The position numbers and the translations under genes were made by a program. From contig CAYISF010000001.1 of the NCBI GenBank assembly GCA_964366065.1, positions 1-31,281 on the forward strand: a stretch of 31,281 bases of DNA, written 5' to 3'. The DNA comes from an uncultured Candidatus Saccharibacteria bacterium. GTDB lineage: Bacteria; Patescibacteriota; Minisyncoccia; Phycocordibacterales; VMEP01. Below the pieces are notes generated by a model. It did no database searches and was not told the DNA's origin. It saw nothing but the letters and a program-made list of their open reading frames with translations. Below are positions 9,648-31,281 of the stretch, piece after piece (positions within the stretch are counted from its first letter, which is position 1; each line of letters opens with the position of its first letter).

Positions 9648-9679
9648 ACTTGGACGACTTGGACGTTTCGTTTCCAAGT
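9648..9679 (-). repeat. REP palindrome upstream of the RAYT (inverted copy)
   Basis: Exact reverse complement of 10176-10207 (ACTTGGAAACGAAACGTCCAAGTCGTCCAAGT). Confidence 0.9.
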
Positions 9680-9867
9680 ATTAAAATGTTTATATGAGAA
9701 AGAAACCTTTTGTAGCGGGTGAATATTATCACGTTTACAATCGTGGGGTAGATAAACGCAATATTTTTTCTGACCAGAATGATGTACAAAGGTTTTTGCA
9801 AAGCATGAGGGAATTTAATACTAAAGAGCCGATAGGCAGTATATATGAAAATTCTTTTGTAAAACCC

Positions 9868-9894
9868 CAACTTGGACGTGAAACGTCCAAGTTG
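9868..9894 (+). repeat. REP copy inside the RAYT CDS (12-bp perfect stem, GAA loop)
   Basis: CAACTTGGACGT-GAA-ACGTCCAAGTTG, translated QLGRETSKL. Confidence 0.9.
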
Positions 9895-10172
9895 CCCAAG
9901 TTGGGGAAACTGCCAAAATCTAATCAGAAATTAGTTGATTTTATTGCATATTGCTTAAATCCAAATCATTTTCATTTTATCCTAAGACCCCTCAGTGATA
10001 ATGGATTAAGTGAATTTATAAAAAGATTAGCGGGTGGTTATACAAAATTTTTTAATAATAAAAGCAACAGAATCGGAGTCCTATTTCAGGGAGTGTTTAA
10101 GTCAATTCATGTAAATAGTAACAAATACTTACTCTATTTGAGTGCTTATGTAAATCTAAATAATGAAGTTCA

Positions 10173-10207
10173 CCAACTTGGAAACGAAACGTCCAAGTCG
10201 TCCAAGT
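10173..10207 (+). repeat. Second REP copy inside the RAYT CDS
   Basis: CCAACTTGGAAACGAAACGTCCAAGTCGTCCAAGT, translated QLGNETSKSSK. Confidence 0.9.
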
Positions 10208-10389
10208 TGGTAAGGAATAGTTTTAATGAGTATATAAATAACGAGCCTGGCTTTTGCACAAAGGAGATTATTTTGGAGCAGTTTAATTCAAAGAAGGAAT
10301 ACGGTATATTTGTAAAAGAGGTGGTGGGCGAAATCGCCAAAAGAAGAAAGGAAGATAAGGATTTTGAAAAATTATTGTTAGAATAAGCT

Positions 10390-10426
10390 AACTTGGAAAC
10401 GAAACATCCAAATAGCATCCAAATAG
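10390..10426 (+). repeat. Degenerate REP just downstream of the RAYT stop
   Basis: AACTTGGAAACGAAACATCCAAATAGCATCCAAATAG: the left arm is intact and the right arm has decayed. Confidence 0.8.
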
Positions 10427-10434
10427 TATAAATT

Positions 10435-11904
10435 GTGAATATATTTAGGCGAAAAAAACAAGTTATCGCGTTTTATTGGCGACATAGAGCGAGAGAAATG
10501 CAAAAGTACAACTTCTGTATTTCCGAGCCGAGGAGCCAATATAGGTCTAATCCCCCGCGCTCTTGGCGCGGGGTCAAATATCTTTTTGCGCTTACAGTGT
10601 TTGTTTTTTCCTTGTGGGGAGGAAACGCAATTGCTCAACAATTTAATTCTTCGTCATTTAAGGTAGAGAGTCCGGTTGTCGCGCCGGGAGGTTATTCCAG
10701 TTCCAATAGTTACCGTTTAAACAGCGTGTTGTATCAAATGTCCATTGGCACTAGTTCCTCGTCTTCCTTTGGCGGAGCTTCGGGATTTCTTTATTTTCCT
10801 TTTGTCACGACACCGGTTGTTTCCGCGACGGCCGGAGTGAACGAAGTGGCTCTTAGTTGGTCGGCCGCGACCGGTTACCTTGGCTGGAATGTCGGTGATT
10901 ACAATTACGGGCAAGGGAGCGTATCCGGCGGACCCTATTCATACACAAATGTCGGGAATGTGACAAGTGCCACCGCAAGCGGACTTACAGCCGGAACTAC
11001 ATATTACTTCGTTATTCAGGTAAAAGATGTTTTTGGCACCGTCGTCGCTACTTCAACCGAAGTATCGGCCGCGCCGACGGCGCCGGCAACCCCCTCTCCT
11101 CCCGGCGGAGGAGGCGGAGGGGGGGGAGGAGGAGGGGGCGGCGCGCCTAGCGACGTGTACTACGGCCCGGCCGTTGTTAATTTTTCCGGTCGGGCATATC
11201 CTTTGAGTGTTGTGACACTACTGAAGGATGCGCAAGTGGCGGTCACTACGGCAGCAGGCCCCGATGCCAATTTCCAAATATCTCTAACCGGCCTTTCCAC
11301 CGGCAGTTACCTTTTTTCCGTTTATAGCGAAGACAAAAATAGACGACGGTCCAGTTTGCTCACATTCCCGGTAAGTGTTACCGTCGGCGCCAAGACGAAC
11401 ATTACAGGAATCTTTTTGGCGCCAACCATCGGCACCGACAAGAGTGAAGTGAAAAAGGGGGATGACATCGCCATTTTCGGACAAAGTGTTCCTAACGGCG
11501 ACATTACCTTTGTGGTAAATTCAGAAGAGGACTTTTTTGCCCGGGCCAAGGCCGACGTAAGCGGCGTGTATCTTTCCAATTTTGACACAGTCGTGCTTGA
11601 TTATGGCCAGCACACCGCCAAATCAAAAGCGGCGTTAGTTTCTGAAGTCAGCCCCTTCGGTTCTGCCGTCGGATTCAAGGTTGGGACAAGAAATGTTCTT
11701 GCCAGTCCGTTCTTGGCCTGTCCGGAAAAGGCCGATTTTAACGGCGACTGTCGGGTCAATCTCGTTGATTTCTCCATCGCTGCGTATTGGTACAAGCGCC
11801 CTCTTACGGCGGAATTTGCGGCGGTAGAAAAAGTCAAACTAAACGGCGACGGCAAAATTAATCTTGTTGATTCCAGTGTAATGGCTTATTACTGGACGGG
11901 GTAG
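10435..11904 (+). CDS. Secreted protein with an FN3-like domain, poly-Gly linker, Ig-like domains and a C-terminal dockerin-like domain
   Basis: Signal core YLFALTVFVFSLWGGNAIA. FN3-like VALSWS...Y.YG...SGGPY...GLTAGTTYYFVIQVKD. Two EF-hand-like repeats ADFNGDCRVNLVDFS and KLNGDGKINLVDSS. The start could be GTG 10435 or ATG 10498. Confidence 0.8.
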   Translation: MNIFRRKKQVIAFYWRHRAREMQKYNFCISEPRSQYRSNPPRSWRGVKYLFALTVFVFSLWGGNAIAQQFNSSSFKVESPVVAPGGYSSSNSYRLNSVLYQMSIGTSSSSSFGGASGFLYFPFVTTPVVSATAGVNEVALSWSAATGYLGWNVGDYNYGQGSVSGGPYSYTNVGNVTSATASGLTAGTTYYFVIQVKDVFGTVVATSTEVSAAPTAPATPSPPGGGGGGGGGGGGGAPSDVYYGPAVVNFSGRAYPLSVVTLLKDAQVAVTTAAGPDANFQISLTGLSTGSYLFSVYSEDKNRRRSSLLTFPVSVTVGAKTNITGIFLAPTIGTDKSEVKKGDDIAIFGQSVPNGDITFVVNSEEDFFARAKADVSGVYLSNFDTVVLDYGQHTAKSKAALVSEVSPFGSAVGFKVGTRNVLASPFLACPEKADFNGDCRVNLVDFSIAAYWYKRPLTAEFAAVEKVKLNGDGKINLVDSSVMAYYWTG

Positions 11905-12040
11905 TGAATACAAGAATATAGAATTTAGAATGTAGAATATAGGGAGATGCAAGATTGAAATACAGGGCAAGAATATAGAATTTAGAATGTAGAATATAGG
12001 GAGATGCAAGATTGAAATATAAGACAAAAATATAGAAATA
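11905..12040 (+). repeat. Left heptamer array (TAGAATA family) containing an exact 52-bp direct repeat (11911-11962 = 11968-12019)
   Basis: Units tatagaa/tttagaa/tgtagaa; period 57 bp. Confidence 0.9.
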
Positions 12041-12043
12041 CGA

Positions 12044-13300
12044 ATGAAAAGCGAAATAAAATCTTTTAGAAATTTGATAGTTTGGCAAAAATCAGCTGAT
12101 TTGGCAGTTTTGGTTTACCGCTACACAGAAAAATTTCCGCGCTCAGAACAAAATGGTTTAGTAAATCAGATGCGTCGGGCAGTAGTTTCCGTCTCTTCAA
12201 ATATTGCCGAGGGGTTTAAACGAAATCATAAAAAAGAGAAAGTTCAATTCTATGCTGTATCATATGGCTCTGTCTCAGAGCTGGAAAGTCAAATAGAAAT
12301 TTCTAAAAGATTGAATTATCTCAACGAAAAACAATCAAGCGAATTACTTAATTTAGTTATAGAAATATCCAAAATGACCGATAGCCTTATACGGTCTACT
12401 AATAATAATTTTTCTAGGTCTTATGTTCTGAATTCTATATTCTTTTTATTTTTCCTATATTCTGTATTCTATATTCTAAATCCTTCTTCAGCTTTGGCGG
12501 CGCGCTTCTCGGTTGAAGCACCCAGAAATATCGGCATGGAACAATTTGTGGCGAAGATATATCTGGACACGGAGGGAGTTTCAATAAATGCCATTGAGGG
12601 AAGTATTGCACTTTTAAAATCGGCCAAGGTTCAAATACGGGCCGATAATTCCGATGTGCCTTTCTGGGTTGACCAGCCAATACTAAATGCTTCAAAAAGA
12701 ACCATTTCGTTTTCCGGAATTATTCCGAACGGTTATCCCGGGAACAGGGCGTTTCTCTTTTCCATCGTCTTTTCTGACGGAAACGCATTTTCGGGAACGC
12801 GTTTTTCCGGTACGGCCTACAAAAACGATGGTCTAGGGACAAAGTTAGCGATTGAAGAAAATAGAACGTCAATTATCCGTCTTGCCAGCATTTCTCTCCC
12901 GGACATTTCGGATGACCGCGAACCGCCTGAAACATTTATCCCTCTTCTGGGCAATGATCCGGCCAATCCCGATATTTATGCCGTCTTTTTCGCGACCCAA
13001 GACAAATTTTCCGGTATTGACCACTACGAAGTTGCCGAAGCCCGGCCGACGCTTTTTGGGCTTGCTCCCAAAGTGCTTACTTTTGAGAAAGCGGTATCGC
13101 CATATAACTTGAGCGACCAAGACAAGGCAAGCTTTATTTATGTAAAAGCGGTTGACAGAAACGGCAATGAACGCGTGGAAAAGATTTCCCCAGAAAATCG
13201 CTTTCTCGCTTACCGCTTTGCGTTGTTTCTCGGTATAATACTGTTATTGCTTATCGGCGCAATTGGTTATGTCGGGAAAAAGTTTAGGCGCGGTAAATAA
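12044..13300 (+). CDS. Fusion: four-helix-bundle protein (TIGR02436/23S-rRNA-IVP, bAvd-like) + repeat-encoded hydrophobic segment + cohesin-like domain + Ig-like domain + C-terminal TM
   Basis: SFRNLIVWQKS..L...VY..TEKFP..E..GL..QMRRA.VS..SNIAEG..R...KE...F..V.YGS..ELESQ. Then SINAIEG...W...P...ISFSGIIPNGY.G...NDGLGT. Ends with LALFLGIILLLLIGAIGYV-type TM and KKFRRGK. Confidence 0.85.
   Translation: MKSEIKSFRNLIVWQKSADLAVLVYRYTEKFPRSEQNGLVNQMRRAVVSVSSNIAEGFKRNHKKEKVQFYAVSYGSVSELESQIEISKRLNYLNEKQSSELLNLVIEISKMTDSLIRSTNNNFSRSYVLNSIFFLFFLYSVFYILNPSSALAARFSVEAPRNIGMEQFVAKIYLDTEGVSINAIEGSIALLKSAKVQIRADNSDVPFWVDQPILNASKRTISFSGIIPNGYPGNRAFLFSIVFSDGNAFSGTRFSGTAYKNDGLGTKLAIEENRTSIIRLASISLPDISDDREPPETFIPLLGNDPANPDIYAVFFATQDKFSGIDHYEVAEARPTLFGLAPKVLTFEKAVSPYNLSDQDKASFIYVKAVDRNGNERVEKISPENRFLAYRFALFLGIILLLLIGAIGYVGKKFRRGK
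12421..12481 (+). repeat. Right heptamer array (TATTCTA family, inverted relative to the left array), translated in frame
   Basis: aattcta/tattctt/tattctg/tattcta/tattcta units encoding YVLNSIFFLFFLYSVFYILN. Confidence 0.85.
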
Positions 13301-13311
13301 TTCGTATAACA

Positions 13312-15051
13312 ATGAAAGCTCGGTTCTTTCGTTTCGCCACAGTTTTTGCCGCGGAAACGGCAGTTGTCGCATGCCTGTTTCTTTTCGCGCCACCTTCGGT
13401 ATCGGCGGCAAATCTGTACTTTTCGCCTTCATCCGGCAACTACGGAACCGGACAGACATTCACGGTTTCCATATATGCCGGAAGCACCGATCAGTCAATG
13501 AACGCGATTTCCGGCGTAGTTGTTTTTCCGTCCGACAAACTTTCTGTCGTTTCGCTCTCTAAATCCGCTTCCATAGTGTCGCTTTGGGTTCAGGAACCGT
13601 CTTTCTCCAACGGAGCCGGAACGGTGAATTTTGAAGGCATTGTTTTAAACCCCGGTTATACCGGTAGCGCCGGAAAAATTATTACCATTGCTTTTAAAAC
13701 TAAGCAGGCCGGTAATGCTGCTTTATCTTTTACCTCAAGTTCATTGCTGGCTAATGACGGGAAGGGGACGAATATTCTCTCCGGTATCGGAACGGCTAAT
13801 TTTTCGATTGGAATCACACCGAAAGAATCCACCACCTCTACTGTTTCTTCAGGCGCGCCTCAAGCGCCTAAGATAACTTCACCCACTCATCCCGATCCCG
13901 GTCAATGGTATTCAAAGAGCGATGCGACATTTGAATGGACAGTGCCTCAAGACGCAACTCGTGTTCGCGTACTCTATGATAAGTTTCCGTATTCGCAACC
14001 GACGGTTGCCTACAATGCGTCGCTCGTTAAAAAAGATATCACCAGTGCCGCCGATGGCATATGGTATTTCCACGCGCAATTCACCAATAGTAACGGGTCA
14101 GGGGCGATTTCCCATTTCCGTTTTCAGATAGACACCGAGAAGCCAGATTCGTTCATTATAGAAGAGATACCAAGGAGCGACCCGACCGACCCTGTAGCGC
14201 AATTTACTCTTACCGCCATGGACAAGCTTTCAGGCATAGACCATTTTGAGATAAAGATTGACGATGGCCTGAACCCGGCTGTGACTTGGAACGGGCAAAG
14301 CGGCGCAACCTATAGAACCAAGCCAATTCCGCCCGGGAAACACACAATCTCCGCCAAGGCCGTTGATAAAGCCGGAAATTACGCGGCCGACTTCGTCGAT
14401 TTTTTCATCCAACCGCTTCTTGAAACGCCCGTTATCACGGACATTGAGAAAGAAATCCCGGAAGGAGAGATTGTTTCTTTGCGCGGCAATACCAAATACC
14501 GCAATGATGGAGATACGGTTCTTGTCCGCATAGAACGCGGCGGAAGACCGACGATTGTGCAAACTGTTCGCATTATCGACGACCAGGGGGATTTTACCTT
14601 TGTCTTGGACCAGAAACTTAATCGGGGCGCTTACAACGTCTCCCTCCGGGCGGTTGACAGCCGCGGGGCCCAAAGCGAAGAATCGCCCAAGTCTAATTTC
14701 GCTGTCGTTTCGTCCGGTTCTCTTAATATTGGCAACATAGTCGTGAGCTATCTTTCGCTATTTCTTCTCTCCATAATCATTATCTCGATAATCGCTTTTA
14801 TCGGCCTCTACATCTGGCATAAGTTTACATGGTTCAATAAGCGGCTTAAGAACGAAACTAACGAAGAACAAATGGCCGTAATGCGCGCTTTTGCTACGCT
14901 CCGGGACGAGATTAAAGGGCAGATCGCCATGATGGACGGGCGGGGGGACCTTTCCGAACAGGAGAAAAAGATTTATCATAAGTTTCGCGAAGCGCTCCGC
15001 ATTTCCGAGAAATATATTGCCCGCAAAGTGAAGGATATTGATAAGAAATAA
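13312..15051 (+). CDS. Membrane-anchored cohesin-domain protein with Ig-like domains, a TM helix and a cytoplasmic coiled-coil tail
   Basis: Signal peptide ending SVSA. LYFSPSSG...GQTFTVSI...MNAISG...FPSDKL.V..LSK..SIVSLWVQEP.FSN..G.VNFEG...PGY.G..G.I.TI.F...G...LSF....LLANDG.GT. TM segment YLSLFLLSIIIISIIAFIGLYIW. Confidence 0.8.
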   Translation: MKARFFRFATVFAAETAVVACLFLFAPPSVSAANLYFSPSSGNYGTGQTFTVSIYAGSTDQSMNAISGVVVFPSDKLSVVSLSKSASIVSLWVQEPSFSNGAGTVNFEGIVLNPGYTGSAGKIITIAFKTKQAGNAALSFTSSSLLANDGKGTNILSGIGTANFSIGITPKESTTSTVSSGAPQAPKITSPTHPDPGQWYSKSDATFEWTVPQDATRVRVLYDKFPYSQPTVAYNASLVKKDITSAADGIWYFHAQFTNSNGSGAISHFRFQIDTEKPDSFIIEEIPRSDPTDPVAQFTLTAMDKLSGIDHFEIKIDDGLNPAVTWNGQSGATYRTKPIPPGKHTISAKAVDKAGNYAADFVDFFIQPLLETPVITDIEKEIPEGEIVSLRGNTKYRNDGDTVLVRIERGGRPTIVQTVRIIDDQGDFTFVLDQKLNRGAYNVSLRAVDSRGAQSEESPKSNFAVVSSGSLNIGNIVVSYLSLFLLSIIIISIIAFIGLYIWHKFTWFNKRLKNETNEEQMAVMRAFATLRDEIKGQIAMMDGRGDLSEQEKKIYHKFREALRISEKYIARKVKDIDKK

Positions 15052-15065
15052 TGATATTACAAGAA

Positions 15066-15160
15066 TTTAATATTTAAAATATAAAATTTAGGAAAGATAC
15101 ACAAAAAATAAATACACATCTGATTTGTACCATATTCTAAATTCAATATTCTACATTCCC
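15066..15160. repeat. Putative empty heptamer cassette: degenerate left-type units, a spacer, then right-type TATTCTA units
   Basis: tttaaaatataaaatttagga (resembles tttagaatatagaatttagaa) ... catattctaaattcaatattctacattccc, which uses the same unit variants as the 11905 array in reverse. Confidence 0.55.
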
Positions 15161-15161
15161 C

Positions 15162-15704
15162 ATGGATACTTTCGCACATGGACTCTGGACGGGAGTTTCC
15201 TATGAAGCTCTCAAGCGAAATTCTAAAAGACCGATAAACGTTTCGCTTTCGGTATTTTGGGGCGTGTTTCCCGATTTTTTCGCTTTTACCATTCCTTTCA
15301 TTTATATGTTTGGAAGTGTTCTTTTTGGGAGAATGAGCTTAAGCAATTTTCGCCCTCATACGCAAATAGAACCCGTGGCTCACCAATTTCCGTTCTATGA
15401 TTTGGCGAATTCGCTTTACAACGTAAGCCACAGTTTGTTTGTTTTTACGCTCGTTTTCGTAATAGTCGCGCTTATGCGGAAAAAAGTGATGTGGGAACTC
15501 GGCGCATGGTTGCTCCACATTCTGATAGATGTACCGACGCATTCCTACCAATTTTTCCCGACGCCGTTTTTATGGCCGATATCAGATTTTCGGGTGAACG
15601 GTTTTTTGTGGGCTACACCGACTTTTATTGCCGTAAATTATACGCTGATATTAGTTTCGCTTGTTGTTTTATATCTGACTCGACTCAAAATAAAGCAAGA
15701 ATAA
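15162..15704 (+). CDS. Membrane-bound metal-dependent hydrolase (YdjM/DUF457-like)
   Basis: MDTFAHG...GVFPD...SHSL...LLHILIDVPTH His/Asp motifs within hydrophobic helices. Confidence 0.75.
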   Translation: MDTFAHGLWTGVSYEALKRNSKRPINVSLSVFWGVFPDFFAFTIPFIYMFGSVLFGRMSLSNFRPHTQIEPVAHQFPFYDLANSLYNVSHSLFVFTLVFVIVALMRKKVMWELGAWLLHILIDVPTHSYQFFPTPFLWPISDFRVNGFLWATPTFIAVNYTLILVSLVVLYLTRLKIKQE

Positions 15705-15747
15705 TTTGATTTTGAGTTTAGAATAATAGAAGTTAAAATAAACGCAT

Positions 15748-15855
15748 ATGTATAAAACGCTTGTAGCCATTTTTCTTGTTCTCGGGGCCGCCGGACCTTT
15801 CTTGGCTTACAAAGGGCGCGCCGAACCGATTCAGATTTACACAATTAGGCCTTAA
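15748..15855 (+). CDS. Possible 35-aa small membrane protein MYKTLVAIFLVLGAAGPFLAYKGRAEPIQIYTIRP
   Basis: Translated by hand (ATG 15748, TAA 15853-15855). Basic N-terminus plus hydrophobic core. Too short for the ORF track. Confidence 0.35.
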   Translation: MYKTLVAIFLVLGAAGPFLAYKGRAEPIQIYTIRP

Positions 15856-15887
15856 AATAATCACTTCCCGTGTTATAATAAGCAAGT

Positions 15888-16385
15888 ATGGATTTTTATA
15901 CGTGGTTGGTTTTTCTTCATATTGTCGGGACGGTTTTGGGCGTCGGCGGCGCCACTTTCGCCGAGATTTTTATAGTTAAGGCCATGCGGGACGGCATCGT
16001 TAACCCGGAGGAAACCGACTACCTGCGCTCAATTTACGCCGTTCTCCGTATCGGGTTTTTCTTGACCATAATTTCCGGTTTCTCCTTTCTCTACGTTTAC
16101 CGCATTACCGGAAACGAAGAGCTTTTGTATCAGCCGAAGCTTTGGGCCAAGCTGACCGTTATCGTTGCCATTGCCGTAAACGCCATGCTTATACACATTC
16201 GCGCCATCCCGCTTTCGGTCGGGAGCGCCGTGGCTCTGGTTTCTTGGTACACGGCTATGTTTCTGGGGGTTTGGCGAACACTCCCGTTCGGATATTTTGA
16301 AATTGTCCTTACCTACGCCGTTATTGTCGTCGCGGCCATTCCCATTCTCACTTTTATACGGAAACAATTCGGCGTTAAGATATGA
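15888..16385 (+). CDS. Multi-pass membrane protein, function unknown
   Basis: About 5 hydrophobic helices, with His in FLHIVG and NAMLIH. TGTTATAAT lies near 15870. Confidence 0.8.
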   Translation: MDFYTWLVFLHIVGTVLGVGGATFAEIFIVKAMRDGIVNPEETDYLRSIYAVLRIGFFLTIISGFSFLYVYRITGNEELLYQPKLWAKLTVIVAIAVNAMLIHIRAIPLSVGSAVALVSWYTAMFLGVWRTLPFGYFEIVLTYAVIVVAAIPILTFIRKQFGVKI

Positions 16386-16840
16386 GCGTAATATTTCAAT
16401 CAGCTTTGCTTCTTCATATCATTTTGGGAATACTTGCCATGGTGGCGAGCGTTACGCTATGGATGGTATTTCTTAAACGCATTCAGAATTTCCGTTTAAT
16501 TAAATTTTCGGCTGGCGCGACCTTTTTCCTCTTATTGGGTTCGTGGATAAGCGGCGGATATTATTACCTGTATTATTACGGCGCGTCAGTCCGTTCCGTA
16601 ATTCTTTCCGGCCCGTATCCGTGGGCGCATAAGATAGTCATGGAAGCAAAGGAACATATCTTTCTTTTCCTGCCTTTTCTCGCAGCAGTCGTTTTTTTCG
16701 CCGTTTTAAGGTTTCGAGAAGGGGAGGCAATAAGTCCGGTACTCCTCCGGGGGCTCGCGATTTTAATAACGGCCATGACGACGCTTATCGTACTGATGGC
16801 GCTCGGGGGAATTGCCATTTCCGGCGCCGTCCGCCCTTAA
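16382..16840 (+). CDS. Four-TM membrane protein, function unknown
   Basis: ATGA overlap with the upstream gene. Motifs LLLHIILG and PWAHKIVMEAKEHIFLFLP. Confidence 0.8.
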   Translation: MSVIFQSALLLHIILGILAMVASVTLWMVFLKRIQNFRLIKFSAGATFFLLLGSWISGGYYYLYYYGASVRSVILSGPYPWAHKIVMEAKEHIFLFLPFLAAVVFFAVLRFREGEAISPVLLRGLAILITAMTTLIVLMALGGIAISGAVRP

Positions 16841-16846
16841 TTTTTT

Positions 16847-17164
16847 ATGAAGCAAAACACCATTATCGCAAGTTGCATCGGAGCCATCGCAGCCATTATT
16901 CTTACGGTTGCGATTACCATCGGCGGGGAACTATACGCTCCGCTTAAGGACTGGCTTAAAACGACATTCACTCACCACTGGCTCGGTAAAAGCGTTATCT
17001 CGGTCGCAGTATTTGCTGTTATTTTATTTATAACCAAATTTTTACCAGTGCCCGAAAGTGAAGAACGTATTGCGCGGTTAATCTCTATCCTTGCCTTAGT
17101 TGCAATTTTAGGCACTTTTTCCCTGATTGGTTTTTATACCTACGAGTATCTAATTTATCTTTAA
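16847..17164 (+). CDS. Three-TM membrane protein, function unknown
   Basis: Hydrophobic helices with a FTHHWLGKS motif; 6 bp after the previous stop. Confidence 0.75.
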   Translation: MKQNTIIASCIGAIAAIILTVAITIGGELYAPLKDWLKTTFTHHWLGKSVISVAVFAVILFITKFLPVPESEERIARLISILALVAILGTFSLIGFYTYEYLIYL

Positions 17165-17173
17165 TTTCAACCA

Positions 17174-17752
17174 ATGAAAGTAAAAAATATTCTTGTTCTT
17201 TTGGGACATTCCGATAAGGAAACAAAATGCGGAGCGTTTGCCAGCGCGTATGAAGAAGGAGCGCGCGCGGCGGGGCACGAAGTGAGAAGAGTGAACATCG
17301 GCGAGCTTAAGTTTGACCCGATTCTGCATAAAGGATACAAAGTGATTCAGGAACTCGAACCGGATTTGCTTAAGCTTCAGGACGATTTTCGCTGGGCCGG
17401 CCACATTTGCCTCGTTTATCCCAATTGGTGGGGGACGATGCCGGCAATTTTGAAAGGACTTTTTGACCGGTTTTATTTACCCTCCTTCGCGTTTCGATTT
17501 TGGAAGAATGACTTAGGATGGGACAAGCTTTTGAAAGGGCGAACGGGAAGAGTTCTTATAACCATGGATGTAAATCCATGGATTGCCAGAATTTTTTTTG
17601 GCGACAATTCCAACGAAATTAGAAGCAACATTTTGGGTTTTGCCGGCATTAAAACCCATGTGACTAAAATCGGGCCGCTCAAAAATATCAGCCCAGAAAA
17701 AATTGAGCACTGGAAGAAAAAGATTTTTGCCATGGGAAAGAGAGCGTGCTAA
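17174..17752 (+). CDS. NAD(P)H-dependent oxidoreductase, flavodoxin-like fold (Flavodoxin_2 / quinone reductase family)
   Basis: ILVLLGH...FDPIL..GY...Q.LEPDL...Q....WA.HI..VYP.WWG.MPAILKG.FDR...P.FAF...L.GRT.RV.ITM. Confidence 0.9.
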   Translation: MKVKNILVLLGHSDKETKCGAFASAYEEGARAAGHEVRRVNIGELKFDPILHKGYKVIQELEPDLLKLQDDFRWAGHICLVYPNWWGTMPAILKGLFDRFYLPSFAFRFWKNDLGWDKLLKGRTGRVLITMDVNPWIARIFFGDNSNEIRSNILGFAGIKTHVTKIGPLKNISPEKIEHWKKKIFAMGKRAC

Positions 17753-17761
17753 TGTGTGCCC

Positions 17762-17875
17762 ATGTCTTTATCTATCGGTATTGTAGGTTTACCGAATGTC
17801 GGCCCCAGTAGTAGAGAGTACCCCAGTAGTACAGCAAAGCTGACTACGGGGCATAGCTCACTATGGGGTGAGTAG
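17762..17875 (+). pseudogene. Displaced ychF 5' fragment (MSLSIGIVGLPNVG) running into inserted palindromic DNA and stopping at TAG
   Basis: 27-bp identity GGTATTGTAGGTTTACCGAATGTCGGC at 17777-17803 and 17924-17950. Confidence 0.85.
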
Positions 17876-17908
17876 TGGTAGTATTGTACCCATTTCATCG
17901 CATGTAAC

Positions 17909-25672: not shown

Positions 25673-26911
25673 ATGGATTTTATTTCTTTTTTTACCTATT
25701 CGTTCCAGCAGTTAATAACACTTTCACAGGATACGGCGGGCTATTGGGCGCCGTTTATTTTTGGTTTTTTCTTTTGGAAAGCGTGGATGTACTACATACA
25801 GACGGACTATCTCTCCAAAATGAAATGGGTGCTGCTTGAGATTCACCTCCCCAAAGAAGTGTACAAACCACTCCAAGCCATGGAGTTTGTACTTATGTCC
25901 TTAGACCAGCCAAGACCGGGGTCCAGGTATGAGAAGTACTGGGTCGGTCTTGTACCTCCGTGGTTTTCGCTTGAAGTTGTTTCCATCGGCGGCAACATAC
26001 GATTTTTTATCCGCATGCATATATTTTATAAAAATTTAATTGAAGCACGCATTTACTCGCAGTTTCCGGAAATTGAATTAAGCGAGGCGCCGGATTATAC
26101 AAATATACCCATACCTTCAGCCGGAACCTGGGTCAGTTTGTATGGCGCGGAATATAAATTGTTGAAACCCGACCCTATTCCCATAAAAACATACGTGGAT
26201 TACGGAATGGACAGGGCGTATTTGGATGAAAAACAGCGTTTCGATCCGATGGCGCCTATGCTCGAATCATTGGGGTCCATTGGTCCCGATGAACAGTTTT
26301 GGGTTCAGATTCTGGTTCAATCGCACAAGAAACGGTATAAAAAAGAAGATGGAGACCTGGGCGACTGGCGCGATGAAGCCAAGGATGAGGTGAAAAAAAT
26401 AATGGAGGGAGAAAAAAAAGAAGATGATAAAAAAGACGACCTTAGGTCCGTACCGCTCTTTCGCCTGACTAAAACGCAGACAGAGAATATTGCTGCCATT
26501 GAACGGAATATATCAAAAACAGGTCTTGATTGCGGAATAAGAGCGATTTATATGGCAAAACCGGGGAAATTTGTAATCAGCAATATCCCGGTGATTAGCG
26601 GTCTGTTTAAACAATATAACTCAAGTGAACTTAATGGTTTTAAGTCAGTACGCTCGGTGGGATTTGATTCTCCCTGGGAAGACGTGGACAGGGTTCTTGG
26701 CATTCACCGCCTCGGCCGGGTAAGGCGAAGATTTTTTGACTCCTACCGCCGGCGTTCGTATTTTTATCCTCCCTACAAACGAAAACCTTTTGTTTTAACG
26801 GTAGAGGAACTGGCGACAATCTTCCACTTCCCGAGCGCCATTGCCGAGACCCCGACATTAAAGCGGATGGAATCAAAAAAGTCGGAGCCGCCGACAAATC
26901 TTCCACTTTAA
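25673..26911 (+). CDS. Conserved CPR hypothetical membrane-anchored protein, resembling the N-terminal region of CPR T4SS/TraG-like proteins but with no ATPase motifs
   Basis: LLEI.LPKEV.K...AME..L, FSLE.VS..G.I.FFI, IE..IYSQFPEIE, PIKTY.D, EELATIFHFP. No Walker A motif. Confidence 0.65.
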   Translation: MDFISFFTYSFQQLITLSQDTAGYWAPFIFGFFFWKAWMYYIQTDYLSKMKWVLLEIHLPKEVYKPLQAMEFVLMSLDQPRPGSRYEKYWVGLVPPWFSLEVVSIGGNIRFFIRMHIFYKNLIEARIYSQFPEIELSEAPDYTNIPIPSAGTWVSLYGAEYKLLKPDPIPIKTYVDYGMDRAYLDEKQRFDPMAPMLESLGSIGPDEQFWVQILVQSHKKRYKKEDGDLGDWRDEAKDEVKKIMEGEKKEDDKKDDLRSVPLFRLTKTQTENIAAIERNISKTGLDCGIRAIYMAKPGKFVISNIPVISGLFKQYNSSELNGFKSVRSVGFDSPWEDVDRVLGIHRLGRVRRRFFDSYRRRSYFYPPYKRKPFVLTVEELATIFHFPSAIAETPTLKRMESKKSEPPTNLPL

Positions 26912-26919
26912 ATTCAATC

Positions 26920-27915
26920 ATGCATTTATTCTCCAAAAAAGAACCGGCATATCTGTTTGTGCCCAATAATCCCATTTCAAAAAAACAGTGGATTATCGGG
27001 TCTATCCTCGCCGCTATCGCCATCCTTTATTATTTTTTTGCCAGCGCGCCGGGTAATTTCCCGGTCGGTAAAACAATCCGCGTACCAAGCGGCATTTCAA
27101 CCAAAGCAGTTTCAGAGATGCTGGGAAACGAGAATATCGTCCGGTCGCCATTCGTACTTCGGACAATCCTCTTTCTTTCTGGGCAAGAATCAAATGTCGT
27201 CGCCGGCGACTATATCCTTTTATCCAGGGAAGGCGCGTTTACCATAGCGTATCGCCTGTCTGCCGGAGAATTTGATTTGACCCCTATTCGCGTGACGGTT
27301 CCGGAAGGCACGGCAAGTTTTAATATCTCCAAGCTTTTCGGAAAAGATTTCTATAATTTTAACAGCGAGGAATTCTTGAAATTAATCGAAGGGAAAGAAG
27401 GGTACTTATTTCCCGATACTTATTTAATTTTTCCGAACGCCACGACTGAAGAAATCGTAAGGATGATGGAAAGCACGTTTACCCGGAAGATGAAAGAAAT
27501 TGGGAATGAAATTACCGTGTCGGGTAAAAGTATTCACGATATAATCGTTATGGCTTCCATTATTGAGCATGAAGCGAAAAAAACAAATGACAGACGCATT
27601 GTCTCAGGCATTTTGTGGAAGCGCTTGTCTATCAATATGGCTCTTCAGGTTGACGCGCCATTTGCTTATATCAGCGACAAGAGCACCTATGAATTGACCA
27701 AGGATGACCTTAAGCAGGATTCCCCGTACAATACATATAATCGTACCGGCCTCCCGCCCGGGGCCATTAATAATCCGGGGATGGACGCAATTCTTGCCGC
27801 CATTTACCCGACGAAATCGCCCTATTTGTATTATTTATCCGACCGGGCAGGGAATATCTATTACGCGGCCACTTTTGGCGAGCATAAGAAGAATAAAGAA
27901 AAGTATATATACTAA
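26920..27915 (+). CDS. mltG: Endolytic transglycosylase MltG (YceG family)
   Basis: N-terminal TM, VTVPEG, EGYLFPDTY, IIVMASIIEHE, LQVDA, SPYNTY...GLPPGAINNPG..AI.A. Confidence 0.93.
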   Translation: MHLFSKKEPAYLFVPNNPISKKQWIIGSILAAIAILYYFFASAPGNFPVGKTIRVPSGISTKAVSEMLGNENIVRSPFVLRTILFLSGQESNVVAGDYILLSREGAFTIAYRLSAGEFDLTPIRVTVPEGTASFNISKLFGKDFYNFNSEEFLKLIEGKEGYLFPDTYLIFPNATTEEIVRMMESTFTRKMKEIGNEITVSGKSIHDIIVMASIIEHEAKKTNDRRIVSGILWKRLSINMALQVDAPFAYISDKSTYELTKDDLKQDSPYNTYNRTGLPPGAINNPGMDAILAAIYPTKSPYLYYLSDRAGNIYYAATFGEHKKNKEKYIY

Positions 27916-27917
27916 TC

Positions 27918-28019
27918 AACGAATTATACAAATTTACGAATGAATACGGATGAATTGATTTATTCGTAACCATTCGTAACCATTCGTATCATTCGTTTCC
28001 ATTCGTAACCATTCGTATT
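27918..28019. repeat. Inverted arrays of 9-10-bp units: about 4 ACGAAT-like cores facing 6 ATTCGT cores
   Basis: acgaat 27919, acaaat 27928, acgaat 27936, acggat 27946. attcgt at 27962, 27972, 27982, 27991, 28001, 28011, ending at the ATG at 28020. Confidence 0.9.
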
Positions 28020-28571
28020 ATGAGAACCCGCAAACTTGCTTTTATAGACACTGAGACAACCGGGCTGGAACCGGACAAGCATGAGCTTATTGAAATCGGA
28101 CTCGTCCTTGCGGAACAATCTCTGTCCAAAGAAAAGAAAATTATTTTAAATGTAATTGAGGAGTGGGAAGTAAAAATAAAGCCTCTTCATATTGAACAGG
28201 CTGATCCGGAATCACTTCTGATAAATCATTACAACGAAGCGGATTGGGTTTTTGCCGTCCCTCTGAATAAGGCGCTTATAGAGTTTTCCAAGAAGACCGA
28301 CAATGCCATGATGGTCGGGCAGAATGTGTCGCATGATTTTTCTTTTCTGCAAAAGGCCTTTGCCGAGACGGGGGTGGAAAATAAGATGCATTACCATAAA
28401 TTGGACACTATTTCCATAGCGTTCGCCAAATTGTATGCTCACGAAGAGGTGGAAAAATTATCACTCCGCGCGCTTTGCGAATATCTGGGCGTTAAAAACA
28501 GGAATGCTCACTCGGCGCTTTCCGACGCCCGCGCGACCTTTGAAGTGTTTCAGAAGCTGATGGCGCTATAG
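28020..28571 (+). CDS. DEDDh 3'-5' exonuclease (DnaQ-like)
   Basis: FIDTETTGL (ExoI), GQNVSHD..FL (ExoII), HSALSDA (ExoIII). Confidence 0.9.
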   Translation: MRTRKLAFIDTETTGLEPDKHELIEIGLVLAEQSLSKEKKIILNVIEEWEVKIKPLHIEQADPESLLINHYNEADWVFAVPLNKALIEFSKKTDNAMMVGQNVSHDFSFLQKAFAETGVENKMHYHKLDTISIAFAKLYAHEEVEKLSLRALCEYLGVKNRNAHSALSDARATFEVFQKLMAL

Positions 28572-28615
28572 GGATTAGAAAAACTAAAATCGAAGGAATT
28601 GGGGTTTGCGTAAAT

Positions 28616-28660
28616 AAAAAAGACCCCTTCCTGTGCGACAGTGTCGCGTGGGTTGGGGTC
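28616..28660 (-). terminator. Probable intrinsic terminator of the SPFH gene
   Basis: GACCCC...GCGACA-G-TGTCGC...GGGGTC hairpin next to an A6 run (U-tract on the minus strand). Confidence 0.6.
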
Positions 28661-28679
28661 CGATCCATCTGGATCTGTC

Positions 28680-29567
28680 TTACTTAAGGGGCACGGTCGG
28701 CTGTACGCCGAGCTGGCCGATGATTGCAGTACAGTTCGCCTTGTTTCCGCAGGCCCCTATAGCCTCGATTTGTTTCTTGGCTATTTCCAGTTGCAGGAAC
28801 TGACTCGGCGTAAAACCAATGTTGTTGCGATACGCATTGTCGGCGTTGGCTCGTTCCGTTTCGGCGTTCTTACGCTGGATTTCGGCCTTTGTTCGCTCGT
28901 CTTCCGTCTTTGCCCGCTGTTGCTGGGCGGCCGTGTCAGCGAGGTTGTCGAGAATCTTCTGCGGCGGAGTCGCTTTGCCGACGATGACTTCCATCACTTC
29001 CGCATCGATGCCCTTGGTTTTGACGAACTCGCGCATTTCACCAATAACGACGCGTTGGATCTCGCCCAAGATATCTTTCCCATCGGCGTTGAGCTGCCGC
29101 GTGGTCAGCGCCGTCATGGACGTCTTTGATACTTCGTCACGAACCGATGTGCGAAACACTTCTTTCAGGTTCATCTGGTACCACGTTGGTCCGAACGACG
29201 CGTGTAGCCGCGGCGTCTTTCCCGGAATCGGCCGCACCTTGATATAGGCGTTGAAGTCGATCGGAATGTTGTCGGCGGTGATGGTACCGTCCTTCACGTC
29301 GTCAAACGGCTCGGTGTGCTGAATCGGCCGCACATCGTACATAATCGGTTCGGTCGTGTAGAACAGCCACTTTGAGCCAGTCGTGAATGGCTCGGACCGG
29401 ACGCCACCGTTATCAAAGATCGTCCAGAACGGTTTGTCCACCAGAACCGCTTCGTTTCCGGCTTCCACCTGAACACGTTTCGTGACCGCAAACATCACAA
29501 TCACGAACAAAAGTAGTAGCACAGAGGCGACCACACTGAAAACAGGGAATTTCTTCTCGCTATCCAT
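28680..29567 (-). CDS. SPFH/band-7 (prohibitin-like) domain protein with a single N-terminal TM
   Basis: TM VVASVLLLLFVIVMFAV; V.AG.EAVLV.KP; F.TSVRD.VS; EV.EVIVG...PP..I; Ala/Gln/Glu-rich coiled coil. GAGGAG lies 6 nt upstream of the ATG. Confidence 0.85.
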   Translation of the reverse strand: MDSEKKFPVFSVVASVLLLLFVIVMFAVTKRVQVEAGNEAVLVDKPFWTIFDNGGVRSEPFTTGSKWLFYTTEPIMYDVRPIQHTEPFDDVKDGTITADNIPIDFNAYIKVRPIPGKTPRLHASFGPTWYQMNLKEVFRTSVRDEVSKTSMTALTTRQLNADGKDILGEIQRVVIGEMREFVKTKGIDAEVMEVIVGKATPPQKILDNLADTAAQQQRAKTEDERTKAEIQRKNAETERANADNAYRNNIGFTPSQFLQLEIAKKQIEAIGACGNKANCTAIIGQLGVQPTVPLK

Positions 29568-29608
29568 CTTATACTCCTCAAAGAACTCACGCGAAATTGC
29601 GTTCTGGT

Positions 29609-29636
29609 ACTATATCATAGATAAGATTTTTGTCAA
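29609..29636 (-). promoter_or_regulatory. Sigma-70 promoter of the SPFH gene
   Basis: Minus strand TTGACA-N16-TATAGT with TGA immediately before the -10 (extended TGn). Confidence 0.7.
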
Positions 29637-29732
29637 TCCCACGTAATGGGGCAATAGAGTTTAGATATTCACCCAATCGGTCGTTATCAGAAAAATCTCA
29701 AAAATTTGGGAGGTATACAAAACCTAGTAATA

Positions 29733-29760
29733 TTCAATTTTCTGCTTTTAACTTTTCATT
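29733..29760 (-). repeat. AGTTAAA-family heptamer array upstream of mnmA
   Basis: Minus strand aatgaaa agttaaa agcagaa aattgaa; same family as the leuS 23694 array. Confidence 0.55.
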
Positions 29761-29780
29761 ACCTGCGGTATTATCCGCAC

Positions 29781-30872
29781 ATGGTGCGAAAGAAAACAAA
29801 AGGTAAAGTTTTCGTGGCGCTGTCGGGCGGCGTGGACTCATCCGTTTCGGCGGCACTCTTACAAAAAACCGGCTATGACGTGACAGGCGTATTTATCAAG
29901 GTCTGGCAGCCCGATTTTTTGCCGTGCTCGTGGCGGGAGGAGCGCAGGGATGCCATGCGGGTGGCGGCTAAACTCGGCATTCCGTTTCTCACCTTTGACT
30001 TGGAGCGCGAGTATAAGCGTGATGTCGCGGATTATATGATTCGCGAGTACAAAGCCGGACGGACGCCGAACCCCGATGTGATGTGCAATAAATACGTGAA
30101 ATTCGGGGCGTTCTACAAAAGGGCGCACGGACTCGGAGCGGATTTCATTGCGACCGGACATTACGCGCGAATTAAAACTAACAACCTACAACCTACAACC
30201 TACAACCTACTAACGGCGGCTGATAAAGCAAAAGATCAATCTTATTTTCTATGGACAATCAACCAGAAAGTTTTATCACACACGCTTTTTCCGATAGGCG
30301 GTTACAAAAAGAGCGAAGTGCGCGCTCTGGCAGAAAAGTTCGGCCTATTTACTTCGGAGAAAAAAGACAGCCAGGGGCTTTGTTTTATCGGGGAAATGGA
30401 TATGAAAGAATTTCTTTCGCATTACATTAAAGCGTCCCGCGGAGATGTCTTAAACGAAAAAGGGGAGAGTATCGGGTATCACTACGGAGCGTGGTTTTTC
30501 GCTCCCGGCGAACGGCACGGTTTTACTGTTCTCAAAAAGAGCCCGCATGATGAACCGCTTTACGTAATCGCCAAGGATGTGTCTAAAAATACGATAACAG
30601 TCGGAGTGCAGCGGAACCATTCGTCTGAATCAAATTTGCGAACGATAACGCTTTCCGAAACAAACTGGATTTCCGGCATGGCGCCTGTGGCAGGGAAAAA
30701 GTATCGTGGCCGTCCGCGTTATAGAGCATCCTTAATCGCCGTGGCAGTGAAAAAAATTAAGCCCGGAAAGGCAACTCTTGCTCTCGCTGAAAAAGATGCT
30801 AATCTCGCGCCCGGCCAGTCATTCGTTCTTTACGACAAGGAAGTGTGTTTGGGTGGGGGCGTCATTGGCTGA
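29781..30872 (+). CDS. mnmA: tRNA-specific 2-thiouridylase MnmA
   Basis: VALSGGVDSSV, GRTPNPDVMCNKYVKFG, IATGHYAR, KDQSYFL, KKDSQGLCFIG, APGQS.VLY...CLGGG. ATG 29781 is preferred over TTG 29706. Confidence 0.97.
   Translation: MVRKKTKGKVFVALSGGVDSSVSAALLQKTGYDVTGVFIKVWQPDFLPCSWREERRDAMRVAAKLGIPFLTFDLEREYKRDVADYMIREYKAGRTPNPDVMCNKYVKFGAFYKRAHGLGADFIATGHYARIKTNNLQPTTYNLLTAADKAKDQSYFLWTINQKVLSHTLFPIGGYKKSEVRALAEKFGLFTSEKKDSQGLCFIGEMDMKEFLSHYIKASRGDVLNEKGESIGYHYGAWFFAPGERHGFTVLKKSPHDEPLYVIAKDVSKNTITVGVQRNHSSESNLRTITLSETNWISGMAPVAGKKYRGRPRYRASLIAVAVKKIKPGKATLALAEKDANLAPGQSFVLYDKEVCLGGGVIG
30176..30210 (+). repeat. AACTAAC plus (AACCTAC)x4 array in frame in mnmA
   Basis: Encodes TNNLQPTTYNLL; same unit as the leuS 22464 array. 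Confidence 0.92.
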
Positions 30873-30901
30873 AGTTATCCATAGTTGCGGTTTTTCTTTT
30901 T

Positions 30902-30910
30902 TGCTATAAT
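30902..30910 (+). promoter_or_regulatory. Extended -10 element TGCTATAAT
   Basis: Consensus match in the AT-rich intergenic region upstream of the mgtC-like gene. Confidence 0.45.
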
Positions 30911-31002
30911 GAAACATATTATAGGGTAATATATATGCCACAAAGTCCCGCAGTAAAAATGATGCCGGAGAAATATGCGCGATTTAAAAAACAGCAATGT
31001 TA

Positions 31003-31082
31003 GAAATTATTAAACATAATCTAGAAATAGCGATAAAACTACTCCGACAGGAGTAGCGCCATTTTCCACTATCGGGATGGAA
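31003..31082 (+). repeat. 80-bp dispersed repeat, copy 2, ending in the ATG GAA of the mgtC-like gene
   Basis: See copy 1. Perfect stem CTACTCC-GACA-GGAGTAG. Confidence 0.88.
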
Positions 31083-31281
31083 TTTTTCAATACTCTCGCC
31101 TCGGATGCCAATATGGACATTCTTCTCAAGCTTTTCATGGCGCTTTTTTTCGGCGCCGTTTTAGGGCTTGAGCGCGTCTTTGCCCATCGTCCGGCTGGTC
31201 CGCGCACTTACGCCCTTGTTTCCATGGGTTCTGCTCTTTTCATCATTATTTCGGAAATCATTTCCCTGCAATATCTGTCGC
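31077..31281 (+). CDS. MgtC/SapB family membrane protein, 3'-truncated by the window end
   Basis: Translated by hand: MEFFNTLASDANMDILLKLFMALFFGAVLGLERVFAHRPAGPRTYALVSMGSALFIII, matching the MgtC G..(I/L)GLER...(K/R)PAG.RT..LV..GSALF pattern. Confidence 0.85.
   Translation, partial: MEFFNTLASDANMDILLKLFMALFFGAVLGLERVFAHRPAGPRTYALVSMGSALFIIISEIISLQYLS

Follow-up and report, generated by a model that had tools for sequence, protein, structure and literature searches.

Heptamer-array elements and PF05635 four-helix-bundle cassettes in the genome of a groundwater bacterium

Genes and repeat elements of the window

The window (the whole stretch of 31,281 nt analysed here) belongs to the 559-kb genome of a tiny groundwater bacterium (GC 46%, 88% complete, 14% non-coding). 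It carries a gene part for a four-helix-bundle (4HB) protein between inverted repeat arms, a RAYT-like gene with hairpins of its own, and short tandem arrays both between and within genes. The initial annotation had read these as loaded and empty cassettes and one-sided footprints of one kind of element; all the features that it listed were located, as follows.

9694 to 10386, + strand: RAYT-like (Y1 transposase) gene, by profile matches, 1.7 kb upstream of the cassette
11910 to 12037, + strand: 57-nt unit repeated 2.2 times (TRF), forming the upstream cassette arm
12044 to 12430, + strand: coding part for an Avd-like 4HB domain (PF05635 / TIGR02436), with no stop codon of its own
12044 to 13300, + strand: 418-aa open frame in four parts, a fusion also found in four other CPR genomes
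12409 to 12485, + strand: (ATTCTAT)n arrays that complement the upstream arm and form the downstream one
15132 to 15158, + strand (CTA strand): solitary array of the TAGAATA family (TRF)
18615 to 18650, + strand: hairpin of REP type and a further 9-nt unit, both in frame within ychF
22464 to 22497, + strand: leuS site 1, perfect (AACCTAC)x4.9 array (TRF), in the loop after WIGRSEGAEIEF
22587 to 22616, + strand: leuS site 2, AAGAATA/TAGAATA array (TRF)
23694 to 23735, + strand: leuS site 3, AAGTTAA/AAAAGTK array (TRF), in a variable linker
27918 to 28019, + strand: gene-less hairpin, arms of the 10-nt units ATTCGTAACC
30181 to 30210, + strand: array in an mnmA loop, perfect (ACAACCT)x4.3 (TRF)

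The 4HB part of the cassette is a member of PF05635 and TIGR02436, with matches above the curated cut-offs and over the whole domain (PF05635: E 4.9e-36, aa 9–112, 123.6 bits against a cut-off of 33.8, profile positions 1–104 of 106; TIGR02436 of NCBIfam: 3e-35, 120.7 bits against a cut-off of 24). Both copies of the 57-nt unit upstream of it bear an (AGAATAT/TAGAATN) heptamer array with TAG on the sense strand, the AGAATAT heptamers lying at 11913–11999 inside the repeat, and the downstream ATTCTAT arrays were delimited by TRF to 12409–12478. For both 11912–11943 and 11969–12000, complementarity to 12454–12485 is 84% across 32 nt. Folded as a 596-nt RNA, the cassette reached -136 kcal/mol as compared with -114 kcal/mol for shuffles (z -3.8), and in the minimum-energy fold both left copies pair with two right arrays. 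The loaded state, a PF05635 gene at 12044 between inverted heptamer arms, is thus borne out by both TRF and folding. The arms of five orthologous fused cassettes scored alike whether paired with their own or with each other's partners (19.0 vs. 18.75), which gives no covariation support for a selected stem. Excision of the cassette was sought in metagenome contigs from four groundwater runs (region 11400–31281). Contigs with excision-like joints (11942/11999 to 12455) had a depth of 28–82 as compared with about 6, 27-nt sides and foreign flanks; because of these flanks and the far greater depth, the joints are TAGAATA hairpins of other organisms and not products of cassette excision. Among RNA runs, none was listed as containing this DNA.

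The 418-aa frame encodes, in order, the 4HB domain, an array-encoded hydrophobic segment, a cohesin-like surface domain and a C-terminal hydrophobic tail. Its hydrophobic segment is the downstream arm translated in frame, ending in an Ala-x-Ala-like site, and the same arrangement recurs in G115/L047 and L189–L192. Recruitment of repeats as membrane anchors, which had been proposed for the window, was upheld for one arm: as predicted from its translation, 12409–12485 is a conserved hydrophobic signal or anchor segment of the 4HB-cohesin-like fusion in CPR genomes.

Of the two empty states that had been claimed, one stood. The hairpin at 27918–28019 is strong (-28.7 kcal/mol, z -4.6); it has additional unpaired 3' units, and its end is the ATG of an exonuclease gene. 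At the orthologous junction, G003 is without a hairpin and G002 has one that is differently spelled. The other claimed state, at 15066–15160, was not upheld, as 15058–15162 folds no better than shuffles (z -0.4) and the left partner at 15064–15090 is not significant, merely AT-rich; only the right array is real, and it stops 3 nt short of the ATG of a ydjM-like gene. A third candidate loaded pair (C5), with TAGAATW arms around a 170-aa ORF with a PD-(D/E)xK-like motif, is of uncertain cassette status, the ORF having no assignment in Pfam, PDB or NCBIfam and a search of 120 genomes of the order yielding no homologue. Related arrays also enclose rplF (C12) and, in L041, an ABC ATPase gene, which shows that this position is also taken by ordinary genes.

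The arrays within leuS (21765–24200) and mnmA (29706–30872) were compared with 30 relatives (LeuRS sites 1 to 3) and with 5 relatives (the MnmA loop). The LeuRS loop at 22464 holds differently spelled heptamer arrays in at least 13 relatives, and the array at 22587–22616 is missing in the same-genus G001, the net difference being +4 aa (+12 nt, not a multiple of 7). Among same-genus relatives, the MnmA loop holds other arrays in G001 and G003 and none in G002. As had been annotated, three arrays in leuS and one in mnmA are therefore read in frame in variable loops, and they are best read as elements that would be tolerated within permissive loops.

The RAYT gene contains its own REP hairpin twice in frame (about 9869–9905 and 10177–10210) and is flanked by further copies (9648–9680 and 10388–10426). 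The 9-mer hairpin ACTTGGACG was found at 9648, 9884(-), 10190(-) and 18627(-), against a chance expectation of 0; the in-frame copies claimed for the RAYT gene and ychF are present, two in the former and one in the latter, and the ychF hairpin is kept in two same-genus species with both arms changed. Clear copies of this REP family number only five and are confined to the window. The statement that no recombinase is visible has to be qualified by the RAYT gene 1.7 kb upstream, which, however, has a REP family of its own and does not predict heptamer arrays.

Association of arrays with PF05635, next to the gene and between genomes

Genome-wide, 118 period-7 TRF rows were found, as compared with 15–22 (about 17) in five order-4 Markov simulations, a roughly 7-fold excess. 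The frequency of the arrays is thus above chance, while an origin by slippage stays as a rival (see below). Although non-coding DNA makes up 14% of the genome, 61 of the 74 strong arrays lie within or at the edges of it; they cluster at gene boundaries, often stopping at or spanning start codons. They have a median length of 31 nt (IQR 28–33), and 47 of 74 contain a TAG/CTA core as compared with 12% of random 7-mers; the core was also found in 24/55 arrays of other genomes (14% expected). Unit sequences are diverse (the 118 arrays fall into 62 classes, singletons forming a long tail), with families such as AACCTAC (12 loci) and TAGAATA (10 loci) recurring; among the recurrent arrays are some translated as N-termini, namely in two pilin-like proteins, adk, fmt and ruvC. 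Perfect and identical AACCTAC arrays of 28–34 nt occur at seven unrelated loci with unrelated flanks, and no defined ends, target-site duplication or insertion mechanism was found. Most are solitary: an inverted partner no more than 700 nt away was found for only 19 of the 74. TAGAATA is common to the cassette arms, the C10 gene-less hairpin, the 15132 array and leuS; with common unit families and the TAG/CTA core, arrays, hairpins and the 4HB cassette belong together, as first suggested.

Both PF05635 genes of the source genome are flanked by inverted arrays, the second copy (C27, 97 bits) lying between nusG and rplK. Within the order, inverted arms were found at 20/30 PF05635 loci and 4/110 control ORFs, and period-7 arms at 13/30 and 1/110, respectively; the supposed enrichment of inverted arrays at PF05635/TIGR02436 genes is thus far above that of their neighbours. 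The contig scan of genomes used a query alignment of 5 sequences. Across many phyla, 53 of 79 PF05635 loci had an arm score of at least 13 (95th percentile of the null, 11), with a best period of 7 in 43 of the 53. The arms have a fixed polarity: the upstream arm reads YAG in the gene sense at 45 of these 53 loci and the opposite at 2.

The query used retrieved no counterpart of the downstream cohesin-like protein from genomes of the genus, and alleles were therefore compared at the nusG-rplK junction. This junction is loaded in G000 and G012, carries a gene-less hairpin in G003 and a solitary array in G001, and is bare in G002 (5 nt) and in 14 others (4–24 nt), so that all four kinds of allele occur within one genus. 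Polymorphism between loaded, gene-less and bare states at one orthologous site, anticipated in the initial annotation, is therefore real. However, the units of the gene-less alleles are unrelated to the loaded arms; neither conversion from loaded to empty nor the proposal that footprints arise by loss of cargo was supported here.

At the genome level, 3 strong arrays were found in 724 kb from 15 PF05635-negative genomes as compared with 52 in 800 kb from 15 positive genomes (Mann-Whitney p 0.001 for array density), and density followed PF05635 copy number (Spearman rho 0.65, 30 genomes). The statistics, from 33 genomes of one order, ignore kinship and do not give a causal direction. Within the genus, arrays per 40 kb were 0.7 in G002 (0 copies), 2.7 in G003 (4), 5.3 in G000 (2) and 8.5 in G001 (5). 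The negative genomes (15 related and one of the same genus) have GC and size similar to those of the array-bearing ones, and about half of the genomes of the order are without the PF05635 cassette system. One genome, G064, has 6 PF05635 copies, period-8 rows and zero strong heptamer arrays in 80 kb.

Origin and possible function of the arrays

On balance, we favour the view that the window shows one dispersed class of array elements in several forms, a class that belongs with PF05635 cassettes of the rRNA intervening sequence (IVS) type. Short arrays, mostly of 7-nt units with a TAG/CTA core and about 31 nt long, would be the terminal arms of such cassettes, present in the window as i) a gene-carrying cassette (11910–12485), ii) a gene-less hairpin (27918–28019) and iii) solitary arrays (15132, leuS x3 and mnmA). 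The elements would turn over fast at gene junctions, and within genes survival would be restricted to copies that are in frame, free of stops and situated in permissive loops or at N-termini; the cassette arm at 12409–12485 would have become the signal or anchor segment of the conserved 4HB-cohesin-like fusion. We infer that the cassette system has the arrays as its cis sites, on which the Avd-like 4HB protein would act, with host replication or recombination supplying the chemistry and RNase III, by analogy with rRNA IVS, cutting the transcribed stems. The elements would be selfish or neutral and not host regulators, and the loops of LeuRS, MnmA and YchF, the leader peptides and the signal or anchor segment would be examples of selfish repeat DNA turned into protein.

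A tentative extension is that the PF05635 protein, as a pentameric Avd-like nucleic-acid binder, may be the trans-acting factor of a recombinase-less system, recognising (N4-YAG)n arrays and driving their renewal and spread via host replication or recombination, the arrays decaying once the gene is lost. If so, it would explain both the excess of heptamer (STRR-type) repeats in bacteria and the function and mobility of the rRNA IVS proteins. The cis architecture and polarity across phyla, the YAG core and the co-occurrence within order and genus make the cis-site hypothesis directly testable.

Alternatively, the arrays could be mutational by-products of in-place polymerase slippage with an intrinsic 7-nt step, which PF05635 cassettes merely acquire or need as arms. 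We consider this rather unlikely, even though the diversity of units with its singleton tail, the absence of fixed ends or target duplications and the differently spelled LeuRS and MnmA loop arrays of relatives are as in-place turnover predicts, and an excess of heptamer SSRs is reported for many bacteria (a 2007 survey, as cited in PMC4692102). Possible copy-number variants were also seen in metagenome contigs at 27982–28018 and 23698–23729, but these are weak and unreliable, and may be assembly loops. Slippage does not readily account for a TAG/CTA core 5-fold above expectation, for identical perfect AACCTAC arrays at seven unrelated loci, for a narrow length distribution in place of a geometric tail, or for the fixed polarity relative to the 4HB gene. 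It is also at odds with the near-absence of arrays from the PF05635-negative genomes of similar GC and size and with leuS site 2, where the net difference is +12 nt.

It is improbable that the arrays are RNA or DNA signals serving the host under selection (processing sites, mRNA stabilisers, terminators or start contexts, cf. REP/BIME). Their positions at gene boundaries, often at or over start codons, would suit such a role, as would the strong hairpins, the presence of an RNase III gene (C17) and the conservation of fused-cassette arms across distant CPR genomes; on the other hand, most relatives, including some of the same genus, have bare orthologous junctions, about half of the order lacks the system and the gene-negative genomes sampled are nearly array-free, the unit sequence changes from site to site, and most arrays have no hairpin partner. 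That the arrays are divergent REPs, i.e. REPIN-type elements spread by RAYT, is very improbable in spite of the hairpin-plus-tandem-unit REPs in and around the RAYT gene and the co-occurrence of RAYT and PF05635 in the order (49/15/26/31, odds ratio 3.9), because the five REP copies of this RAYT are confined to the window and consist of a 9-mer without a TAG core, 2 strong arrays were counted in the roughly 240 kb from six genomes that have RAYT and lack PF05635, few arrays accompany the three RAYT genes of G002, and G065 has arrays and PF05635 without RAYT. RAYT presence does not explain array density.

Comparison with known systems

The 4HB domain is of the same homologous fold family as the Avd protein of diversity-generating retroelements (DGR), with matches to bAvd (Pfam; 2.8e-7) and DivGenRetAVD (1.3e-8) that are both below cut-offs, whereas the best matches are to PF05635/TIGR02436. 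A DGR reading was rejected, as the genome (88% complete) has no RVT_1 reverse transcriptase match. As in REP/REPIN-RAYT systems, the RAYT gene of the window is flanked by REP hairpins, which also occur in frame in the RAYT gene and ychF. The heptamer arrays are separate from these, however, having no sequence in common with the 9-mer hairpin family at the RAYT flanks and an abundance independent of RAYT presence.

Ogata et al. are said to have described, in 2000, Rickettsia palindromic elements (RPEs) that sit in frame in protein genes. The arrays resemble RPEs in that housekeeping proteins tolerate in-frame repeat DNA where their structure permits it, the repeats of LeuRS, MnmA and YchF all being at sites that are variable or without the repeat in orthologues. 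RPEs are palindromes of 100–150 nt with a defined sequence, whereas the elements described here are mostly solitary tandem arrays of 28–42 nt, and one loop carries different spellings in relatives.

Bacterial heptamer repeats were already known in 1990, and we are aware of no accepted origin for them. As tandem 7-nt units that are over-represented and mainly intergenic, the arrays have the character of heptanucleotide SSRs and cyanobacterial STRRs. As far as these are described in PMC4692102, which cites the 2007 survey, where slippage was proposed, and a Calothrix report, the likeness extends to the strong intergenic excess, to inverted pairs able to form stem-loops, to quick change between close relatives and to the lack of an accepted function. 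The present arrays differ from those so described in their unit sequences, their tight size of about 31 nt, their TAG/CTA core and their co-occurrence with PF05635 genes, both in cis and at the level of genomes; no paper linking heptamer repeats to this gene family was found in the searchable literature.

The closest parallels to the cassette are in the 23S rRNA IVS of Coxiella burnetii and Leptospira, which also contain a small PF05635/S23p 4HB ORF (PMC4990558). In the Coxiella IVS, tandem GACAGAT heptamers precede the S23p ORF and a 28-bp terminal stem is cut by RNase III, and ORF-bearing IVS are held to be selfish elements of unknown mobility (PMC4990558). The cassette shares with the IVS the terminal inverted repeats (about 20 bp or more, around an ORF) that can form a long stem, and the tandem heptamers just upstream of the ORF, whose copy number differs between strains in the IVS. 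Unlike the IVS, which are inserted in a helix of a 23S (or 16S) rRNA gene, the cassettes described here lie between protein genes (nusG-rplK) or are fused to one (12044–13300), the cassette of the window having a dockerin-like gene on one side and a cohesin-like gene on the other, and many gene-less or solitary arm-like arrays are dispersed in the genome.

The four-helix-bundle cassette and its surroundings

The arrays named in the initial annotation were all located at their positions by Tandem Repeats Finder (TRF), and the observation is real. The genome containing the window (559 kb in 47 contigs, 46% GC, 88% complete, 86% coding) was obtained from groundwater and encodes an RNase III; no reverse transcriptase was found in this 88% complete assembly. 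The cassette lies among the following features, with ychF, leuS, mltG, a DEDDh exonuclease gene and mnmA downstream in the window.

9694-10386, + strand, RAYT-like gene
10435-11904, + strand, dockerin-like surface protein gene
11910-12037, upstream arm: a 57-nt unit present twice, with AGAATAT-type heptamers in each copy
12044-13300, + strand, 418-aa ORF
12409-12485, downstream arm: two ATTCTAT-type arrays

Residues 9-112 of the 418-aa ORF constitute the four-helix-bundle (4HB) domain (PF05635/TIGR02436). Its coding part has no stop codon, and the right arm is translated in the same frame as a hydrophobic stretch and then an Ala-x-Ala-like site, after which a cohesin-like surface protein follows. 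The arms show 84% complementarity across 32 nt, and in the predicted RNA fold the two right arrays pair with both left copies (z -3.8). A matching arrangement, consisting of a TAGAATA-type left arm, a stop-less 4HB gene (product about 60% identical to that of the window) and an array-encoded hydrophobic segment, was found in G115, a genome from a different family of the same order, and in three more CPR genomes; in the next paralogue of G115, too, a signal segment is encoded by an array. Upstream of the fused cassette, G115 and two of the other three carry a dockerin-like gene, and the upstream protein in the third (L191, Uhrbacteria) has no dockerin-like end. This shared fused arrangement indicates that the cassette at 11910-12485 was acquired long ago and has been domesticated, and that it is no recent insertion.

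Several further features were noted. A giant ORF (2291 aa, 2308-9183) is internally duplicated over about 2.9 kb, its minor ORFs recurring at an offset of 2913 nt (e.g. 3361 and 6274, 4438 and 7351). In another genome (G104:C1:654114-657262), a RAYT gene is clustered with two PF05635 genes in a 3-kb stretch, much as in the window, where the RAYT-4HB distance is 1.7 kb; this proximity may reflect chance or a common insertion hotspot. An orphan ORF of 170 aa on another contig of the window genome (L001:485-1117; G000:C5:4284-4916) encodes a PD-(D/E)xK-like motif. Its neighbours are gyrA and a methyltransferase gene, and inverted 40-nt arrays of TAGAATW, the family also seen in the window's cassette, lie on either side of it; a search of 120 genomes of the order gave no homologue.

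Heptamer arrays and their association with PF05635 genes

TRF reported 118 rows of period 7 in the genome, compared with 19 of period 6 and 27 of period 8, and only 15-22 period-7 rows in each of five order-4 Markov simulations. Arrays with 3 or more copies and a score of 34 or higher, counted as strong, numbered 74 and were of narrow length (median 31 nt, IQR 28-33); 34 were intergenic, 18 spanned gene ends, 13 were internal and 9 were no more than 60 nt from the earliest start. Only 19 of them had a partner in inverted orientation at a distance of up to 700 nt. Besides many singletons, the unit families AACCTAC (12) and TAGAATA (10) recurred, and TAG/CTA, the most enriched trinucleotide class, occurred in 47 of the 74 units vs 12% of 7-mers drawn at random from the genome. 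In two pilin-like proteins, adenylate kinase, fmt and ruvC, the N-terminus includes the translation of a perfect AACCTAC array. Gene-internal arrays are for the most part stop-free, a pattern to be expected if arrays arrive at random and are then filtered by selection.

Inverted arrays were enriched around PF05635 genes. In 30 genomes of the order, inverted flanking arms (score of at least 13) were found at 20 of 30 PF05635 loci vs 4 of 110 neighbouring ORFs, and period-7 arms at 13 vs 1. Across phyla (CPR, Bacteroidota, Clostridia, Planctomycetota, Cyanobacteria, Acidobacteriota, Omnitrophota, Proteobacteria and others), 53 of 79 loci were armed (null 95th percentile, 11), with 7 as the best period in 43. 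YAG was on the gene's sense strand in the upstream arm of 45 of these 53 (the opposite in 2), and the distance from the end of this arm to the first matched residue had a median of 38 nt.

Between genomes of the order, 3 strong arrays were found in 724 kb of 15 PF05635-negative genomes vs 52 in 800 kb of 15 positive ones (Mann-Whitney p 0.001; Spearman rho 0.65 with copy number, for modest samples from one order and with kinship ignored), the latter being mostly not cassette arms. Within the genus, arrays per 40 kb were 0.7 in G002 (96% complete, no PF05635 copy), 2.7 in G003, 5.3 in the window genome and 8.5 in G001. RAYT and PF05635 co-occur across genomes (odds ratio 3.9), yet RAYT-positive, PF05635-negative genomes, including G002, are array-poor. 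In G064 (L126-L129), which has six PF05635 copies, 80 kb of sequence contained 14 period-8 TRF rows but not one strong heptamer array, so lineages may differ in array period.

Array states at orthologous sites

The genome's other PF05635 gene lies between nusG and rplK, with inverted 9-mer arrays on both sides. Comparison of this junction in 28 relatives gave the following states.

G012 (another genus): loaded, same protein
G003: gene-less inverted heptamer pair, 105 nt
G015: inverted array pair, 136 nt
G001: solitary array, 44 nt
G002: 5 nt
14 other genomes: 4-24 nt
Several others: non-array palindromes or longer non-array spacers

Loaded and empty alleles thus occur at an orthologous site, with all four main states inside one genus. 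Simple loss of cargo, by which the initial annotation derived empty arrays from loaded ones, is unsupported here, because the units of the gene-less alleles show no relation to those of the loaded arms. In G002 and G003, the window's other syntenic junctions are likewise bare or otherwise filled. As to the two empty arrays proposed in the window, 27918-28019, built of 10-nt units, folds into a strong hairpin without a gene (z -4.6 vs shuffles), whereas 15058-15162 folds no better than shuffles, so that only its right array is real. Contig C10 carries a further gene-less hairpin of the TAGAATA family (z -5.2).

The in-frame arrays, three in leuS and one in mnmA, were also recovered. The LeuRS loop after WIGRSEGAEIEF is of roughly constant length among 30 relatives, and heptamer arrays of differing units encode it in 13 or more genomes from several families; G001 has the AACCTAC array there with one change, and one relative an in-frame inverted pair. 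The site-2 array is missing in G001 (net +4 aa in the window genome), and site 3 is a variable linker with other repeats in other genomes. The MnmA loop has an AAAAGTK array and an ACCTAC remnant in G001, an AAAACGT array in G003 and none in G002. The RAYT REP, a 9-mer hairpin, has two in-frame copies in the RAYT ORF and one in ychF (0 expected); two same-genus species have kept the ychF hairpin with both arms changed, and the window genome has one 9-nt unit more.

Other length differences were seen. About 17 of 30 relatives (L014-L034) have some 150 extra aa, including a Nudix-box-like motif, inserted in LeuRS at window 22870-22915 (aa 370-384), where the window has only a short Cys-containing linker. 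The exonuclease-mnmA gap (28572-29705) is 1.1 kb vs 13-26 nt in G002 and G003, and the segment with ORF 28680-29567 (- strand) is likely a lineage-specific insertion. Three small ORFs without Pfam match (15888-17164) separate the ydjM-like and flavodoxin-like genes, about 130 nt apart in G002. GC-clamped palindromic inserts (units e.g. CCCCAGTAGTA and TACTACGGGG) occupy spacers 17753-17908 and 19037-19243, the G002 orthologues of which are about 12 and 14 nt.

Relation to known elements

The reading of arrays, hairpins and the 4HB cassette as one element class is largely supported by these comparisons, simple cargo loss at nusG-rplK excepted. Our literature search found no paper tying heptamer arrays to the PF05635 family; the excess of heptamer SSRs and the STRR repeats are still without explanation (PMC4692102). 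PF05635 ORFs, known from 23S rRNA intervening sequences (IVS), have been reported in CPR rRNA insertions (PMC11270868) and between cas genes (PMC3936711). In the Coxiella IVS, tandem heptamers precede the S23p ORF, and a 28-bp terminal stem is cut by RNase III (PMC4990558).
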